Assembly (NCBI GenBank): GCA_023898625.1
Contig: CP060231.1
Coordinates: forward strand, 801,890-865,889
Length of the DNA: 64,000 nucleotides
From: Candidatus Nomurabacteria bacterium
Lineage (GTDB): Bacteria; Patescibacteriota; Saccharimonadia; Saccharimonadales; JAGQNJ01
Reading direction: 5' to 3'
Shown here: positions 17,909 to 45,600 of the stretch, piece after piece
Layout: each line of letters begins with the position of its first letter
How positions within the stretch are numbered: the stretch's first letter is position 1
Position numbers and translations under genes: made by a program
The notes under the pieces: model-generated
The model's database searches: none
Told to the model about the DNA's origin: nothing
The model's input: the letters and a program-made list of their open reading frames with translations, nothing else

Positions 17909-18071
17909 TTACCGGACTATATTATTTACCTACATATTGACAATTAGTCACTATCGGTGTATTTTGGTCTAGGATGATGCGCATATTAGATTACATATTT
18001 TTTTGGTTTAATCGCTCAGAAATGGCGGTTGCTAAAGTGCGTATTAAGTAATAAACTCAGCAAAAATTGAT

Positions 18072-18103
18072 ATAACCGCCCTAGCCAAAGGCGGTTATTT
18101 TAA
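18072..18103 (+). terminator. Rho-independent terminator
   Basis: Stem ATAACCGCC (18072-18080) pairs with GGCGGTTAT (18090-18098), followed by TTTTA. Confidence 0.7.
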
Positions 18104-18118
18104 TTGAAAGGAATGTAT

Positions 18119-18316
18119 ATGATAGTAGACAACAGATTAGCTAGAGAAGTACTCAGCGAACATAAGATTGAGATGGATCCAACCGATTCTCGATCAGCAG
18201 AAGAGTATGTACTGCAATTACTGGTTTTGATAGAAGAACTACAAAAGAACGATATTCGGAACGAACAGAATCTAAGAAGTGAATCAGCACAGTCTGACGT
18301 TCCGTATTTTGCATAA
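18119..18316 (+). CDS. Small acidic hypothetical protein
   Basis: The ORF track entry 18104-18316 is trimmed to the ATG at 18119, 6 nt after an AAGGA RBS. No recognisable motifs. Confidence 0.5.
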   Translation: MIVDNRLAREVLSEHKIEMDPTDSRSAEEYVLQLLVLIEELQKNDIRNEQNLRSESAQSDVPYFA

Positions 18317-39462: not shown

Positions 39463-40167
39463 ATGGGAGTTTATAGCAACAAGCAGATCAACGATGCAAT
39501 TAAGTCTAATCACATTGTCTACCATCCATACAATGCCAAGCATATTGCTGGTAGTAGCGTTGATGTAACTTTAGGTAATTGGTATTACAGAACAGAGAAG
39601 CCAAGCCAAGGTGGGTTTTATAATCCTTTTGATAAGAAATCGGTTGATAGCTATTTTAGCGGTCCATTTAAAGCTGAAATTCATCAAGAATGGGCCGATA
39701 AACACGGAAAGAAACTGTTTACTAATATACCTGCTGATCATCCTATAATAGTATTGCGTCCACAAGAACGTATTTTGGCGCACACACATGAGTTTGTCGG
39801 TATCAGAGCACCTGGGACTAGTACAATGCAGGCCCGAAGTACATGGGGTAGAAATGGTGTTGCTGTTTGTCTTGACGCTGGCTGGGGTGATCCGGGGTAC
39901 ATTAATCGTTGGACAATGGAAGTTTATAATATGAACCAACATGAAAGTGTAATTCTGCCGGTAGGTGAACGGATTGCACAAATTGTGTTTTATGAAACAG
40001 GCCCTGTTGATAACGAATACAAAAAAATTAGTGGTAAATATCAATCAAGTACCAGTGATGATCTTGATTCAATAATTGCAATGTGGACACCAGAACAAAT
40101 GTTGCCACGAGGATATAAAGATTCACGAATCATTCCGGAGGCCATTAAAGGTATAAAATATGAATAA
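39463..40167 (+). CDS. dcd: dCTP deaminase-family protein (dUTPase superfamily)
   Basis: 234 aa with GTSTMQARSTWGRNGVAVCLDAGWGDPGYINRWTMEVYN and ERIAQIVFYE. Confidence 0.75.
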   Translation: MGVYSNKQINDAIKSNHIVYHPYNAKHIAGSSVDVTLGNWYYRTEKPSQGGFYNPFDKKSVDSYFSGPFKAEIHQEWADKHGKKLFTNIPADHPIIVLRPQERILAHTHEFVGIRAPGTSTMQARSTWGRNGVAVCLDAGWGDPGYINRWTMEVYNMNQHESVILPVGERIAQIVFYETGPVDNEYKKISGKYQSSTSDDLDSIIAMWTPEQMLPRGYKDSRIIPEAIKGIKYE

Positions 40168-42478
40168 TGAGCCTACGCCTTATGAAAGTGGTGGGCAAAA
40201 GGGTTTATTCATAGTAATTGAAGGAACTGATGGTTCTGGAAAAAGCACGCAATATAAAAAGCTACGAAAACATCTTGCTGATAGTGGATATGAAGTTGTC
40301 GATATGCATTTTCCTAGATATAAAGAAGATTCTAGCTACTTTGTCAGACAATATCTTGCAGGAAAGTACGGGTCATCTGATGACGTCGGCCCATTCACTG
40401 GTTCACTTTTTTATGCCTTAGATCGCTATCAGGCATCAAATGAGATTCGCAATGCATTATCAGAAGGTAAGATCGTACTATGCGATAGGTTTGTCGGTTC
40501 AAACATGGCGCACCAAGGAACAAAGTTTAGCAATGCTGAAGAGCGTCGTGGATACTTTATTTGGCTTGACAATATCGAGTTTATAACACTTGGCATTCCA
40601 CGCCCTGACCTAAACTTTGTACTCAATACTCCCCTGGATATAATTGTTCGAAGGTTAAATGCAAAAAAACAATCAAGTGAAGCAATTCAAAAGGATATTC
40701 ATGAGACAAACGAGAACCATATTTCTAAGTCAATTGAAGTATATAAAGATTTGTGCAACTTGTTTCCAAAAGATTTCCAAAGAATTGATTCATCTCGAGG
40801 TAACGAAGAGCTAACAGTCGATGAAATACATAATCTAATATGGGAGAAAGTTACACCAATGCTTCAGCCAATCAAAAAAGACTTTGACGATACAGATAAA
40901 GTTTTAGAAAAGACAGACCTAGGTATAATTATTACAGATGCAGGGAAGAGATTACTGAGTGAATCAATAACAAACACAGATGGAAACGTGTATGCATTTA
41001 ATGAAAACATTAGTCCAGTGACAGTGGCTGCCGCAATGGCAAGACTTAGCAGAAGAGGTGATGATATGCGCGTAACACTTCTGGACGAGTTTATTAACAA
41101 AGCCGACAAAGACAAAGGACTGCTTAAACGCGTCATAACAGCGTATGGCGATGACTCGGTTCAACAACTAGTTGGTCAACACGTTGTTGTCGAGAACGCT
41201 TCTAACCTCTTAACTAAAAAACTAGAATGGGGAAGGCTAGCCTCTTATCTTGAACAATCTACTAGATATATATATTTTGACCAGAAAGACCAAAACGGAA
41301 ACTATCGATACCATATTCCAGAGTATTTTGATGATAAAACAAAATCACAATACATAAGTTCCTTGGACAGTATTTTTGATTTGTACTCTACGATAGTTCA
41401 TAGATTAACTGATTATGTTCGCGAAAAATCAAGCATACCACCAGAATCTAGAGACATTGCCTGGAAAGGAGCAACCAGAGCGCAGGCGTGTGACGCTGCT
41501 AGACCACTATTACCGGTAGCAACAACATCTACGGTTGGAATATTTGCATCTGGTCAAGCGCTAGAAAGTCTAATAATGCATCTACTTAGCGATGAACTAC
41601 CAGAAGCTAGAAATGTTGGTCAACAAATTCTTGAAGAATCAAGAAAAGTAATCCCTACATTCTTAGAGCGTGCAGATAAACCGGATCGTGGAGGAGCAAC
41701 TATTGCTTATATGTCCAATACTAAGCGATCAGTCAAAACACTAGTAAGCAGTCTATTGCAAGATTCATACAGCAATGATCACAGATCTGTGACTCTTAGT
41801 AATTATTGGCCAAAGAATGAGCTAGATGTTATTCCACAGATGATATATGAGCATAGCAACTTATCTCTTCACGAAATTAAACATCAAATTAATAACCTAG
41901 ATTATAATCAACGTTGCGACATCTTTAACGCATACATCGGCGAGCGATTAAATCGGCGACACAGGCCAGGGCGGGCGCTTGAAATTCCTCACTATAGCTG
42001 GGATATTGTGTGTGACTATGGGATTTTTCGTGATCTTCAAAGACATAGAATTGTAGATGATTTACAGTGGCAATCCCTAACACCACGATTTGGATACGAT
42101 ATACCTGAATTAATTGAATCTGCTGGCCTGGTCGATTTATTCGAAAAATGTTTTTCAATTAGTCTGGAACTATTTAGCTTACTTCAAGCCAATAACTATG
42201 CCACTGAAGCACAGTACGCAACATTACTAGGTCATAAGATGCGTTGGAAGGTCACCTATAATGCTCGTGAGGCTTTTCATCTGCATGAACTACGAACCAG
42301 TCCACAAGGGCATCCTGGGTATCGCAAGTTAGTGAAAGAAATGCATGATAAGCTATGTGAAGTACACCCTATGTTGGGACAGGCTATGAAGTTCATTAAT
42401 CAAGATGAGGATCCAGAGCTAACTCGATTAGCATCTGAGCGTTACACTCAATTTAAATTGCAACAAATTGACAAGTAA
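40160..42478 (+). CDS. Fusion protein: thymidylate kinase (N-terminal) plus tandem-duplicated FAD-dependent thymidylate synthase ThyX
   Basis: Tmk: GLFIVIEGTDGSGKSTQ and DRFVGSNMAHQG. ThyX half 1 carries a degenerate motif (LEWGRLASYLEQSTRY). ThyX half 2 carries the canonical motif (FRDLQRHRIVDDLQWQS). The ORF is 772 aa and continuous. Confidence 0.8.
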   Translation: MNNEPTPYESGGQKGLFIVIEGTDGSGKSTQYKKLRKHLADSGYEVVDMHFPRYKEDSSYFVRQYLAGKYGSSDDVGPFTGSLFYALDRYQASNEIRNALSEGKIVLCDRFVGSNMAHQGTKFSNAEERRGYFIWLDNIEFITLGIPRPDLNFVLNTPLDIIVRRLNAKKQSSEAIQKDIHETNENHISKSIEVYKDLCNLFPKDFQRIDSSRGNEELTVDEIHNLIWEKVTPMLQPIKKDFDDTDKVLEKTDLGIIITDAGKRLLSESITNTDGNVYAFNENISPVTVAAAMARLSRRGDDMRVTLLDEFINKADKDKGLLKRVITAYGDDSVQQLVGQHVVVENASNLLTKKLEWGRLASYLEQSTRYIYFDQKDQNGNYRYHIPEYFDDKTKSQYISSLDSIFDLYSTIVHRLTDYVREKSSIPPESRDIAWKGATRAQACDAARPLLPVATTSTVGIFASGQALESLIMHLLSDELPEARNVGQQILEESRKVIPTFLERADKPDRGGATIAYMSNTKRSVKTLVSSLLQDSYSNDHRSVTLSNYWPKNELDVIPQMIYEHSNLSLHEIKHQINNLDYNQRCDIFNAYIGERLNRRHRPGRALEIPHYSWDIVCDYGIFRDLQRHRIVDDLQWQSLTPRFGYDIPELIESAGLVDLFEKCFSISLELFSLLQANNYATEAQYATLLGHKMRWKVTYNAREAFHLHELRTSPQGHPGYRKLVKEMHDKLCEVHPMLGQAMKFINQDEDPELTRLASERYTQFKLQQIDK

Positions 42479-42482
42479 GTTT

Positions 42483-42848
42483 TTACGACTCGTCAACAGA
42501 AGTTGTATGAATCTCTAAATGCGTGTCAGAGATGTTAAAAGTTAGATCACTAAAACAATTTTTTACACCGGTCATCTCTGAAAACTTTGTAGCGGTGGAG
42601 TTTATGGTGTTAATGATATTTGCTATACGTTGGGCATTTGCCTGTGAGTCACCAGGAATCAGCTCGATGATTATACCTGATTTTCTGGAGATTAAATCTG
42701 CTAGACCATGAGCCGTAAACAGCTCATTTATGCCTGAAGATTCGGTATCCGATACCGTCAGACTATCAACAGGAGAAATGTCTTCAATATGACAATACAT
42801 GGCGTAATGATGTTCGTATTTTTCTTGTGGTGAGCTATTATCGTGCAT
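42483..42848 (-). CDS. Hypothetical protein
   Basis: 121-aa ORF convergent with tmk-thyX. No recognisable motif. Confidence 0.45.
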   Translation of the reverse strand: MHDNSSPQEKYEHHYAMYCHIEDISPVDSLTVSDTESSGINELFTAHGLADLISRKSGIIIELIPGDSQANAQRIANIINTINSTATKFSEMTGVKNCFSDLTFNISDTHLEIHTTSVDES

Positions 42849-43496
42849 ATATTTGAATTTATGGAGGAAGATTTGGGATATTAATCGATGATTTGAGGCT
42901 TAGGTGGGGTCTATTTGTGAAGTTCAAAAAAACTTCTAGACGCAAATGAGCTTGCTTCACAAGGCCTTCTTGTGAACCCACCTGTACCGCGAGCCTATCT
43001 TCAACCTTGAACAGGCTACCTGCAAATGCCTCGCAGATTCTGTTCCTGCCTTTGCAGACGAAGCTCCCAAATCCTCTTCAGGTCTGGAGAATCCTCTGCC
43101 TTCTGCGACTGGAGCAACCGCCTGGTGCGCTTGATTGCCTCTTCAAGCAACTTTGCACTCGCCATACGGCGTGCGCTGGCCTCATCGACATCCATCAGGA
43201 TATCAACCACTTTCTTCCCCCATTGTTAATCACCCTACTCAGGTGGCTAATGACATGATTGTCACTAGACTTGCTTGGAAGCAATGCTTCCATGAACATC
43301 TTGCTACAAAACGCTCATCGAAACACTGCATTATAAAAGCCGAACTTTTGGTTGGAGTTCGGCTTGTAATTTCTGATCTTGAAGCTACTCCAACACACTA
43401 TTCATAAATAATCACAAAGCAAAACGCTTTGTTCATATTGAGTCGGTATGTGTGTTGTGTCTTCACAGTTGAATAATTTACTCTGCTATACTAGAT

Positions 43497-43660
43497 TTGT
43501 CAATACAATATATTGAGTATACAATACTAATAGATGAAAAATTTCGTAAATAGACTACAGCTACTCCTCTTAACTCACCTTAAAGGGCTGTGTTTAGCAT
43601 TTGCGAAAGCCTGATTGATAAGAGATTCAACGAACACAGCCCGAACTATCGGGCTTTTTT
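43497..43660 (+). promoter_or_regulatory. Candidate promoter plus structured leader with mutually exclusive antiterminator/terminator helices
   Basis: Promoter TTGTCA (43497-43502), 17-nt spacer, TACAAT (43520-43525). The 10-bp helix GGGCTGTGTT (43585-43594)/AACACAGCCC (43633-43642) shares AGCCC with the terminator stem AGCCCGA (43638-43644)/TCGGGCT (43649-43655), which is followed by T6. A GGAG RBS and the ATG at 43679 follow. Confidence 0.4.
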
Positions 43661-43678
43661 ATTAGCAAAGGAGAATAT

Positions 43679-44053
43679 ATGAAATACATTAATGACAGTC
43701 AGTGGGAGGCTGAATATGAACAAATGCCTAGAGTCAGGGGATATACTGAAGCCGAACGAAGTATTATCGACTCTGAACCCCAAAACTCCCAACAGCGAAT
43801 TGCGAAAATTCAAAAGGTTATGGAAATTGATCAAAATAGATACCAGGAGTTCAAAGAGATATACCCAGATCAATCGGTACACATGGATAAGTTGATTGAA
43901 GCTTGCGCATTTTTTGCACAAGCAATGGTACGTATTTATAGTCAAGATTGGGGTGTAACGACAAGCGAAAATAGCGAATCTTGCCCAGAAGATATTCCAA
44001 CTAAAGGTATACTTACGCTATTAAACGTAGAGTTTATCGATAGACCGGCTTGA
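43679..44053 (+). CDS. Hypothetical acidic protein
   Basis: 124-aa ORF with a good RBS (AAAGGAG). No recognisable motif. Confidence 0.55.
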   Translation: MKYINDSQWEAEYEQMPRVRGYTEAERSIIDSEPQNSQQRIAKIQKVMEIDQNRYQEFKEIYPDQSVHMDKLIEACAFFAQAMVRIYSQDWGVTTSENSESCPEDIPTKGILTLLNVEFIDRPA

Positions 44054-44126
44054 CAAACGTGCTTACACGGAGTACAAATAGTTTCATAATGACTAAAATG
44101 ATAATTTCAACAATTATTATCAGCTC

Positions 44127-44187
44127 GCATTTGCGGGATTAGTTGTTATATTTAGTAACAAATTAACCCCGCAAACGCGGGGTTTTT
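44127..44187 (+). terminator. Terminator hairpin with an upstream competing (antiterminator-like) strand
   Basis: Terminator CCCCGC (44167-44172)/GCGGGG (44177-44182) plus T5. The upstream CGCATTTGCGGG (44127-44138) is complementary to CCCGCAAACGCG (44168-44179) at 11 of 12 positions. Confidence 0.5.
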
Positions 44188-44205
44188 AAATTGGAGGATT
44201 TAATA

Positions 44206-44397
44206 ATGACGATATTTGAACAAGAACTAAAATATGATTTTTATACAGAAGCATCAGATAAGATGTCGGATAGCACATTACAAAATGAGCTAGAAAATTT
44301 CTTGGAAACAACAGGGAATCCTGAAGTCAAGCAACATCTTACAAACCACAAATTACGTGCTGATTTTATACTAAAAGTAACAGATTTTATGGACTAA
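44206..44397 (+). CDS. Small acidic hypothetical protein
   Basis: Start trimmed to the ATG at 44206, 8 nt after GGAGG: MTIFEQELKYDFYTEASDK... Confidence 0.5.
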   Translation: MTIFEQELKYDFYTEASDKMSDSTLQNELENFLETTGNPEVKQHLTNHKLRADFILKVTDFMD

Positions 44398-44403
44398 TTT
44401 GAT

Positions 44404-44847
44404 ATGGAGGTTTTGTTACAAGAAATGACAGTAAGTGGATACGAAATCCATAAAAGTATACAAAATGACATAAAGTTGACTGCTCAAGATCGTTTGTATT
44501 TTACAAGATTTAACGCATTAGAGTCACTCGATAAAGAATCATACATAAAAGGCCTCGCATCTCTAGCTATTTCGGTAAGCGATAACTGTGAAACACACGA
44601 AAACATTACTAGTCAGAAACGACTAGAGCGCATGTATGCATCTCTGAGCATAAATATTGAACCATATGACGAAACAAGGCTACTTAGTCTGGAGACTGTT
44701 GACTCTATTCTTTTAAACGTAATTGAGTATATTGATTCTAATTGTGATGGTTACTATGGATTAGATTTTATCGATAGAATAAGAACCGCTCGACGTAGTG
44801 GACTAGCCCCCACAAAACAAGACAGCAATCCATTTACTGACATATAG
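44404..44847 (+). CDS. Hypothetical protein
   Basis: 147-aa ORF starting 6 nt after the previous stop. No recognisable motif. Confidence 0.5.
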   Translation: MEVLLQEMTVSGYEIHKSIQNDIKLTAQDRLYFTRFNALESLDKESYIKGLASLAISVSDNCETHENITSQKRLERMYASLSINIEPYDETRLLSLETVDSILLNVIEYIDSNCDGYYGLDFIDRIRTARRSGLAPTKQDSNPFTDI

Positions 44848-44879
44848 TGTTTTTGAATCATGTAAAAGTTTACGCCAAG

Positions 44880-45075
44880 TTGACCAACATGCAAGTATTT
44901 GATAAAATAAGCTTACATTTACCAAAGAAAGTGGCGCTATCAATCATAGTTAAGAATGCTACCGAGGTACGAGAAGTCACAATAAAACTGATTCGTATAA
45001 TATAGCCTCTGGTAAACCCGGAGGCCTTTTTGGTAATAGCAAGGTCGATAAATATCAATAATAATAGGATAAATT
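44880..45075 (+). promoter_or_regulatory. rplJ promoter and probable L10(L12)4 autoregulatory leader with attenuator hairpin
   Basis: Promoter TTGACC (44880-44885), 17-nt spacer, TAAAAT (44903-44908). An 8-bp hairpin GCCTCTGG/CCGGAGGC (44995-45015) is followed by CTTTTT. The leader is about 165 nt before the rplJ ATG. Confidence 0.45.
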
Positions 45076-45600
45076 ATGGCATTAACTAAAGATCAAAAAC
45101 AGTTGGTGGTCGACGAAGTTAGCTCGTTACTTGAAGGCTCAAAAATGACAATCGCTGTCGAGTATAAAGGCATCGGAGTAAAGTCATTGCAACAACTACG
45201 CAAATCTGCCAAAAATAACGGCACAGTAATAAAGGTTATTAAAAACCGTTTAGTTGTAAAAGCACTGCAAAGTAACTCGAAGTTAAAAGATGTTGACATT
45301 AATGATTTAAAAGGTCAGCTTCTATACGCCTTCAACGGCGAAGATGAAGTTGCACCCGCTCAAACTTTAGCAACGTTTGCAAAAACTAATCCGTCATTAA
45401 GATTTGTGGGCGCAATCACTGCAGAAGGACAGTTTATGAGTCCTGACGAAGTAAAGGTTCTAGCCTCGTTACCAAGCAAGAACGAACTAGTTGCACAAGT
45501 TATAGCAACATTGACATCACCACTTAATGACGTAACAAATGCACTTTCCGGAAACTTACACGCCCTACTTGACGGTGTGGAGTCAAAAGTGAGCGCTTAA
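45076..45600 (+). CDS. rplJ: 50S ribosomal protein L10
   Basis: 174 aa [42 protein letters not shown]... Confidence 0.95.

Follow-up and report, generated by a model that had tools for sequence, protein, structure and literature searches.

The window, by which we mean the whole 64,000-nucleotide (nt) stretch of contig CP060231.1 analysed here, carries between its tmk-thyX and rplJ genes a block of two consecutive RNA leaders, leader 1 and leader 2, each followed by genes for small acidic proteins. We find it quite probable that ribosome-mediated (leader-peptide) transcription attenuators make up this block. Judged from sequence, both leaders are genuine conserved terminator/antiterminator switches, beyond what chance would give; their families recur in about 25 Saccharimonadales lineages, with differing genes downstream. 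The first-pass annotation of this DNA had read the architecture as that of a riboswitch or a protein-mediated attenuator; a riboswitch or a dedicated RNA-binding protein fits less well than ribosome-mediated attenuation, because each leader begins with a conserved and apparently translated short open reading frame (ORF), LP1 or LP2, whose 3' end overlaps the antiterminator arm. What was computed in its favour is the set of helices, conserved and covarying, together with the LP1 coding signature and a promoter-to-ATG spacing that stays constant. The elements of leader 1 are the following, in window coordinates.

43497-43525, plus strand: promoter P1, found by consensus scan, with -35 TTGTCA (43497-43502), a 17-nt spacer and -10 TACAAT (43520-43525).
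43534-43614, plus strand: LP1 leader peptide ORF, 26 amino acids (aa) MKNFVNRLQLLLLTHLKGLCLAFAKA, with ATG 8 nt past the -10 and stop TGA at 43612-43614.
43542-43561, plus strand: region a, within LP1 codons 4-10, pairing with region b (43587-43608) in the free RNA according to minimum-free-energy folds.
43585-43642, plus strand: three-way-junction domain, made of helix b':d, hairpin h and hairpin i.
43638-43660, plus strand: leader 1 intrinsic terminator, found by consensus scan, AGCCCGA (d')-ACUA-UCGGGCU (e), with the U run at 43655-43660.

Relatives of leader 1 were sought in metagenomes with the pattern TTGTCAA-N70-95-GGGCTGTG-N35-50-ACAGCCC; the exact 27-mer of the leader 1 core had no match in the JGI metagenomes, so a degenerate pattern was needed. 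The scan gave 70 loci, among which 20 are true leader 1 members representing about 19 distinct lineages, and all members with enough flank lie between tmk-thyX and rplJ. The -35 box TTGTCAA and a -10 box are kept in the relatives L003, L007 and L009 and in about 20 metagenomic relatives. L003 proteins are 57-69% identical to those of the window, and its leader cores are nearly invariant; the tmk-thyX of L006, L007 and L009 is only 63-72% identical to that of the window. L006, L012 and L013, which were found via synteny alone, share the leader design, and in L006 and L013 the same switch logic is built from different sequences, a different complementary pair replacing the b':d helix in L006. 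A terminator-ended leader stands about 20 nt upstream of an unrelated ORF in both L007 and L006; a clear terminator was not found in the leader region of L009.

The metagenome pattern also caught an unrelated family on GC-rich contigs (L028, L032, L033, L036, L038, L048, L058, L064, L074 and others), in which TTGTCAAGACAG...AAGGT...GTCGTAG is followed by a long perfect hairpin, GGGCTGTGGATAAGTGGGCAAC...GTTGTCCACTTATCCACAGCCC, containing the DnaA-box-like TTATCCACA.

The LP1 frame is open in 25/25 relatives, with an in-frame ATG and an ORF of 23-37 aa, as against 1/25 and 2/25 for the other two frames. The third codon position is the most variable one in 8 of the 10 LP1 codons upstream of GGGCUGUG (binomial estimate about 0.003), and the leucine codons interchange synonymously between CTA, CTC, CTT, CTG and TTG, giving the consensus peptide M-x(3-8)-[LIV]3-5-[GSA]-L-x-G-L-C-F-x-M-V-E-A. 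Conservation in the C-terminal half tracks RNA pairing and not codon position. In the window the leucine run CTA CAG CTA CTC CTC TTA stands at 43555-43572, and LP1 has two rare CUC codons, CTC making up 6% of the leucine codons in the genome. The stop is changed from TGA to TAA in L003, where indels are confined to outside LP1. The distance from the -35 of P1 to the LP1 ATG is 35-38 nt in 21/25 relatives; the start codon lies 6-10 nt past the -10 in LP1, in LP2, in two further units presented below and across the relatives, and hence the mRNA is probably leaderless. Two other readings of LP1 were tried and rejected, namely its CUCCU as an anti-Shine-Dalgarno sequence, since several relatives do not have CUCCU, and a lipobox at GLC, where the -1 residue is wrong.

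P1, both intrinsic terminators and a 10-base-pair (bp) helix at 43585-43594/43633-43642 had all been proposed by the first-pass annotation; our consensus scan found P1 and the terminators, and the helix is exact. This perfect helix, b':d, joins RNA GGGCUGUGUU (DNA GGGCTGTGTT, 43585-43594) to AACACAGCCC (43633-43642). Its family form is GGGCUGUGC / GCACAGCCC, enclosing hairpin h (in the window UUUAGC-AUUU-GCGAAA, 43593-43608) and the variable hairpin i (43615-43618/43627-43630), which forms in 23/24 relatives with unrelated stem sequences. Pairing in the b':d helix reaches 99.5%, and covariation (CG / UA) is seen at its ninth pair, the other pairs being fixed by the metagenome search pattern. 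In the window, arm c is AGCCUGAU (43608-43615) and covers the last LP1 codon with the stop; in the family it consists of the 3' strand of h together with the final LP1 codons and their stop. Arm e of the terminator can alternatively pair with arm c, and arm d' belongs to b':d.

Covariation in the leader 1 family was measured on a MAFFT alignment of 24 sequences. Helix c:e is 85% paired, with double changes at 10/12 pairs, a level reached by 0/500 shuffles and with slid controls far lower. The family terminator, e:f, has double changes at 7/10 pairs despite register errors in the alignment, and 4-12/500 shuffles reach this. As c:e and e:f share arm e, they are mutually exclusive. On these counts, and with the ninth pair of b':d, the competing helices are conserved and covarying in relatives, which supports the terminator/antiterminator logic read by the first-pass annotation. 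RNAalifold run on the family alignment recovered b':d alone, because the alternative helices cancel out. The window clade has a derived version in which the terminator is d':e and thus competes with b':d as well as with c:e; L003 has a weakened local terminator and retains c:e through the compensatory changes G43613A and C43650U. Upstream, region a would appear from the folds to be an anti-antiterminator pairing with region b in the free RNA, and this pairing is partly kept in L003, with one-sided changes.

Leader 2 follows ORF1, the first of the small acidic protein genes, and consists of these elements.

44050-44078, plus strand: candidate promoter P2, with -35 TTGACA (44050-44055), a 17-nt spacer and a weak -10 TACAAA (44073-44078).
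44089-44142, plus strand: LP2 leader peptide ORF, 17 aa MTKMIISTIIISSHLRD, with five isoleucine codons and stop TAG at 44140-44142.
44124-44187, plus strand: leader 2 switch, with region 1 CUCGC (44124-44128), region 2 GCGGG (44133-44137), region 3 CCCCGC (44167-44172) and region 4 GCGGGG (44177-44182).

The terminator found by the consensus scan is CCCCGC-AAAC-GCGGGG with U5 at 44183-44187, spanning 44167-44187. In the minimum-free-energy fold 44124-44137 pairs with 44168-44181 over 13 pairs, together with an extending inner helix, and the long antiterminator pairs 44124-44149 with 44155-44181. The pairing across the terminator that the first-pass annotation had claimed thus holds, and its motif CGCATTTGCGGG is present, one position from where it had been placed, at 44126-44137 and not 44127-44138. 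A total of 12 leader 2 relatives retain TTGACA at the P2 position; their spacer measures 16-18 nt, and the start codon follows the -10 by 6-10 nt. The sample of the LP2 family is small, about 12 relatives; its peptides include MTQAIIISIIIGDPQKRD, MTQKSIIIKVIAIPKTRV, MAQILVIEVIILPT and MAQIIIERITITGTDVRA, and a GC-rich terminator follows 21-50 nt after the stop. Nine lineages retain both the GCGGG by the LP2 stop and the CCCGC of the terminator, with duplex energies of -10.5 to -19 kcal/mol, and the T-to-C change of L003 at 44130 is synonymous in LP2 (CAT to CAC).

Leader 1 has a folding z-score of -3.0 and leader 2 one of -6.7. Within 42400-45200 we counted 9 terminator-like sites where shuffled sequence gave 2.0 +/- 1.5; elsewhere in the window the counts were close to or under the chance level, at 11 observed versus 14.7 shuffled, 15 versus 11.2 and 11 versus 13.2. 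From this excess and the z-scores the features of both leaders exceed chance. The first-pass annotation could match the architecture to no known RNA class, and a search of Rfam 15 with the window and 7 relatives agreed: neither the gathering threshold nor E<=1 brought up a match to the leaders, and the only element recognised was the ribosomal protein L10 leader further downstream. The leader 2 terminator has weak sub-threshold Rfam matches to the Thr, Trp and Leu leaders. A description of this attenuator system was not found in the literature searched.

The same design occurs in two further units of the window.

43330-43503, minus strand: third attenuator, with TTGACA (43503-43498), a 17-nt spacer, TAAATT (43480-43475) and GTG at 43466.
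17937-18120, plus strand: fourth unit, at 17.9 kb, with TTGACA-17-TATTTT, ATG at 17974, 8 nt past the -10, and a 25-aa ORF MMRILDYIFFWFNRSEMAVAKVRIK.

The third attenuator and P1 form a divergent promoter pair with overlapping -35 boxes, as also seen in L007 and L009. Its leader peptide, LP(-), has 22 aa, (V)KTQHTYRLNMNKAFCFVIIYE, running from the GTG at 43466 to 43398 and ending ..AFCFVIIYE. Beyond it, GUUGGAGU (43394-43387) can pair with ACUCCAAC (43358-43351) as an antiterminator, against a terminator AAGCCGAAC-loop-GUUCGGCUU (43365-43337) followed by UUAUAAU. In 15/22 relatives a GTG or ATG is found between +36 and +39 relative to the -35, and their peptides of 22-28 aa contain ..[YF][GA]FV[LI]I.., and identity in this region is 86-98% among close relatives. 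The first-pass annotation had suggested that the block may be one regulated module; the module is larger than proposed and includes this minus-strand attenuator. In the fourth unit, the 25-aa ORF contains GGCGGUU, which complements the 5' arm of the terminator ATAACCGCC-CTAGCCAAA-GGCGGTTAT-TTTAATT (18072-18098), after which come a ribosome-binding site and a 65-aa acidic ORF, of isoelectric point (pI) 4.45, at 18119. A divergent minus-strand promoter lies beside it at 17943-17916.

The mechanism we infer for these units, with its probable transcription start site, leaderless translation, ribosome stalling and signal, runs as follows. A sigma-70-type promoter would fire 0-3 nt upstream of the start codon and give an effectively leaderless transcript, on which the ribosome would translate a peptide of 17-26 aa rich in branched-chain residues (leucine in LP1, isoleucine and valine in LP2, an FVLI-type C-terminus in LP(-)). 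The last codons and the stop of the peptide would lie in an RNA arm able to pair with one arm of the terminator, which precedes the ribosome-binding site of a gene for a small acidic protein by about 20 nt. In leader 1 the free RNA would hold a:b and the terminator, so that the default is off. A ribosome slowed in the leucine run would cover region a, freeing GGGCUGUGUU for AACACAGCCC and AGCCUGAU for AUCGGGCU; with both terminator arms sequestered, RNA polymerase would read into ORF1, whereas a ribosome reaching the UGA would cover b, h and c and let the terminator form. In leader 2 a ribosome held on the early isoleucine codons would leave 44124-44149 free to pair across the terminator and permit read-through, while one at the UAG would mask the antiterminator arm, so that CCCCGC/GCGGGG-U5 forms and transcription ends.

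We examined this by mask folding, in which a 27-nt ribosome footprint is excluded from the RNA fold; it should be noted that equilibrium energies are here used for a kinetic process. The free RNA of leader 1 folds into a:b plus the terminator at -31.8 kcal/mol. In the window, leader 1 shifts from terminator to b':d only when the leucine run is covered, and the terminator forms with the ribosome at the stop codon. Covering the early codons of leader 2 gives the antiterminator and covering its UAG gives the terminator. For the leader 1 family the folding was redone on transcripts truncated before arm f, replacing full-length equilibrium folds, and on these transcripts, which end after arm e, c:e forms with the P site in the L-[GSA]-L-x-G-L-C window.

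Saccharibacteria, to which the genome of the window and its closest relatives belong, are generally amino-acid auxotrophs, and the signal would most likely be the supply of charged leucine, isoleucine and valine tRNA; an alternative input to the same switch would be peptide- or drug-dependent ribosome arrest. As isoleucine and valine replace leucine in some relatives, general branched-chain aminoacyl-tRNA supply is the more likely signal than leucine alone. The leucine run of LP1 and the isoleucine run of LP2 are conserved, and the isoleucine/valine swaps make 'branched-chain' or 'hydrophobic' a better description of them than any one amino acid.

Several points weigh against ribosome-mediated attenuation. 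The evidence base is computational throughout, and leaderless translation is not known from Saccharibacteria. Metagenomic members were collected through a pattern that fixes the -35, b' and d, and they are related to one another; both circumstances inflate the shuffle statistics. In full-length equilibrium folds most relatives give the terminator at any ribosome position, so that the model depends on co-transcriptional kinetics. The LP1 stop follows arm c by 0-5 codons in most relatives and by 10 in L009, the leucine run is replaced by isoleucine and valine in some (LVLIILGL, FILIILGL), and the three-way junction is more elaborate than attenuation strictly requires. Beyond the window clade the leader 2 antiterminator is short (5-8 bp) and conserved without covariation. 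The -10 of P2 in the window is weak and lacks the final T, for which reason leader 2 may also be fed by read-through from ORF1. Unlike in classical attenuators, the regulated genes have no link to amino-acid metabolism, ORF1 to ORF3 and their counterparts matching no family, domain or fold. Finally, the conserved hydrophobic LP peptide could have a function of its own.

This last point leads to an improbable alternative in which the short ORFs encode functional small hydrophobic peptides, membrane-associated or pheromone-like, and the terminators are leaky ordinary ones with constitutive read-through and no switch. The hydrophobic core LLLL[GSA]LxGLCF is indeed conserved at the amino-acid level, with leucine exchangeable with isoleucine or valine, the N-termini are basic and the promoters are laid out divergently. 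However, the covariation of c:e, a helix exclusive with the terminator and overlapping the ORF end, is hard to explain without a switch, and conservation in the second half of LP1 follows RNA pairing. Moreover, 17-26 aa would barely leave the ribosomal exit tunnel, transporter, peptidase or receptor genes were not found nearby, and the gap from the terminator to the next ribosome-binding site is too small for a separate promoter.

It is likewise unlikely that leader 1 is a riboswitch, with the three-way junction (b':d, h and i) as aptamer, a ligand deciding between c:e and the terminator, and the short ORF secondary or untranslated. Such a reading would account for a conserved three-helix domain in which hairpin i covaries and b':d is nearly invariant, for the junction being the minimum-free-energy fold in most relatives and for leader conservation that is independent of the downstream genes; as the leader resembles no known class, it could be a new one. 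It does not account for the upstream half of LP1, which lies outside the junction and shows third-position wobble and an always-open frame, nor for a start codon whose spacing from the promoter is fixed. No aptamer-like three-way-junction domain is present in leader 2, the minus-strand unit or the 17.9-kb unit, yet these show the same short-ORF design as leader 1, and the downstream genes, being neither enzymes nor transporters, suggest no ligand.

A third alternative concerns a 9-mer, GCATTTGCG (RNA GCAUUUGCG), which lies at 43597-43605 and 44127-44135, at the tips of hairpin h and of the 1:2 hairpin of leader 2. The first-pass annotation had noticed it in both leaders, with the second copy at 44128-44136 and thus off by one, and had put the chance of such sharing at a few percent. 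That estimate was fair, the 9-mer occurring 3 times in the window against 0.57 expected, a count reached by 3/100 shuffles. As a shared regulatory motif it did not stand, being absent beyond the window clade: L045 carries GCGTACGCG at this position and the leader 2 relatives also differ. Being clade-specific and of weak significance, the 9-mer was dismissed as an operator or binding site common to both leaders, and its sharing is probably coincidental. Protein-mediated antitermination or attenuation, by an RNA-binding protein acting in trans or by an encoded acidic protein in the manner of L10, perhaps at the GCAUUUGCG hairpins, is very improbable, for although a known protein-dependent attenuator, the L10 leader (PMC4538822), lies immediately downstream and each leader has a small hairpin bearing this 9-mer, the 9-mer does not extend beyond the window clade, acidic proteins of pI about 4.6 are poor RNA binders, family searches detected no RNA-binding domain in the encoded proteins, and the leaders are kept while these proteins are replaced or diverge fast, which argues against autoregulation and rules out a co-evolving one.

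Ribosome-mediated attenuation has its classical examples in trpL, leuL, thrL, ilvL/ivbL, hisL and pheL of Proteobacteria, with which our leaders share a short ORF whose codon run belongs to one amino-acid group, the exclusive hairpins 1:2, 2:3 and 3:4, an ORF end at region 2 and an intrinsic terminator just upstream of the regulated gene. They differ from these in a start codon at or next to the predicted transcription start without a Shine-Dalgarno sequence, in targets that are fast-evolving small acidic proteins and not biosynthetic enzymes, in a host that is an amino-acid auxotroph of the Candidate Phyla Radiation (CPR), and in the conserved three-way junction and possible pseudoknot of leader 1. 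Curated leader-peptide and leader RNA families gave no sequence match. The mycobacterial polycysteine attenuators also have a leaderless short ORF as first cistron, as is predicted here, and a ribosome pause on a codon tract that remodels the RNA; several units per genome share one signal, as a 'ribulon' (Canestrari et al., bioRxiv 10.1101/834739). Their output is an unmasked downstream ribosome-binding site, whereas here a hairpin and U-tract terminator stands upstream of an exposed one, and their tract is cysteine with cysteine-metabolism genes downstream, as opposed to leucine, isoleucine and valine tracts and targets without a family match. With ermCL/ermBL, bmrB-bmrCD, the mef/mel leader and tnaC the common feature is a short conserved peptide whose stalling site selects the RNA structure, and some arrest-peptide attenuators act on transcription termination (PMC4191407, PMC4335068). 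In contrast to these, our units show no link to resistance or catabolism genes and no known arrest motif, and the runs look like codon-run sensors. The L10 leader (RF00557) is likewise a terminator-based attenuator and stands in the same intergenic series, but it binds protein and has no leader peptide, and leaders 1 and 2 do not match RF00557. The system is distinct from its closest counterparts in its predicted leaderless start with intrinsic-terminator output, its CPR host, its non-metabolic targets and the three-way junction of leader 1.

Almost nothing is known of gene regulation in CPR/Patescibacteria. If our reading is true, these bacteria have a conserved cis-regulatory system with a clear mechanism that is not found in Rfam 15 or in the literature searched, and classical attenuation would extend past amino-acid biosynthesis to organisms from which that pathway has been lost. 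Our reading would also give indirect evidence of leaderless translation in the phylum, and it would flag the conserved thyX-rplJ locus, whose tightly controlled and fast-evolving small acidic proteins would be good candidates for episymbiotic lifestyle factors. The two leader families could join Rfam and small-ORF annotation lists. Further, we tentatively speculate that Saccharibacteria may possess a lineage-wide ribosome-directed regulon of leaderless peptides rich in leucine, isoleucine and valine, with at least 4 units in the 64-kb window, which would read the host-derived branched-chain supply and on starvation switch on hypervariable small acidic proteins as candidate host-interaction or survival factors; leader 1 would add to it a new three-way-junction/pseudoknot fold absent from Rfam.

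The genes and the known leader around the switches are given below.

43679-44053, plus strand: ORF1, 124 aa, pI 4.56, with GGAG at 43670-43673 and ATG at 43679.
44206-44397, plus strand: ORF2, 63 aa, pI 4.55, with GGAGG at 44193-44197, downstream of leader 2.
44404-44847, plus strand: ORF3, 147 aa, pI 4.65, downstream of leader 2.
42483-43210, minus strand: genes after the minus-strand leader, a 64-aa basic ORF (43016-43210) and a 121-aa acidic ORF (42483-42848).
44904-45040, plus strand: ribosomal protein L10 leader RF00557, upstream of rplJ, with its own terminator at 45005-45025 and 48 bits against a gathering score of 44.

The first-pass annotation had counted three or four small acidic proteins; acidic they are, with pI 4.55-4.65, and three in number, not four. 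It had also called them an ORFan cluster, and indeed ORF1-3, the two minus-strand ORFs and the leader peptides had no match in Pfam, PHROGs, PADLOC or NCBIfam. Among 5.8 billion proteins ORF1 had only three homologues and ORF3 two. ORF1 is no strict ORFan: it belongs to a small fast-evolving family with the C-terminal motif PYxGxE...LPA/RPA. A profile search with this family found 7 unnamed proteins and no domain. AlphaFold models ORF1, at moderate confidence, as a helical hairpin followed by a disordered tail that ends ..RPA, and Foldseek gave no match to it in the PDB at E<1; the model of ORF3 is poor, with low confidence. The stop TGA of ORF1 (44051-44053) sits within the -35 box of P2, and the conserved C-terminal ..PA (alanine and stop) of the family thus partly reflects promoter constraint. 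The same overlap of the P2 -35 with the stop of the preceding gene (GCT TGA CA) is seen in L023, L029, L031, L049, L067, L084 and L007. A phage origin of the block was rejected, IMG/VR having neither ORF3 nor the leader pattern.

The gene order around the block is rplK-rplA-dcd-tmk/thyX-[block]-L10 leader-rplJ-rplL-dnaX. Among relatives, tmk-thyX and rplJ are separated by 205 nt to 2.7 kb of DNA that encloses different ORFs, and we therefore place the block in a variable slot, with the L10 leader as its right-hand border. A promoter-like site, TTGACC-17-TAAAAT with a TG extension, is found at the L10 leader (44880-44908), and with this leader included four terminator-based leaders stand in series inside 1.7 kb. 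On the minus-strand side the 121-aa acidic ORF has a distant homologue in L009. The segment 42860-43330, which carries the 64-aa basic ORF, is GC-rich (48% versus about 38%); it is kept in L001 and L003 and absent in L007, where the minus-strand leader directly precedes a homologue of the 121-aa ORF. This segment is possibly a clade-specific insertion.

NCBI labels the protein identical to ORF3 (P0004, window 44404-44847; H6793_04295) as 'Candidatus Nomurabacteria bacterium', and this label looks inconsistent with the closest genomes found, all of which are Saccharibacteria / Saccharimonadales (CPR). At the left of the slot, 40160-42478 on the plus strand encodes a single 772-aa fusion of thymidylate kinase with ThyX, the flavin-dependent thymidylate synthase. 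The fusion gene overlaps dcd by 8 nt, and the tmk-ThyX fusion is kept across Saccharimonadales genomes at 40-95% identity.

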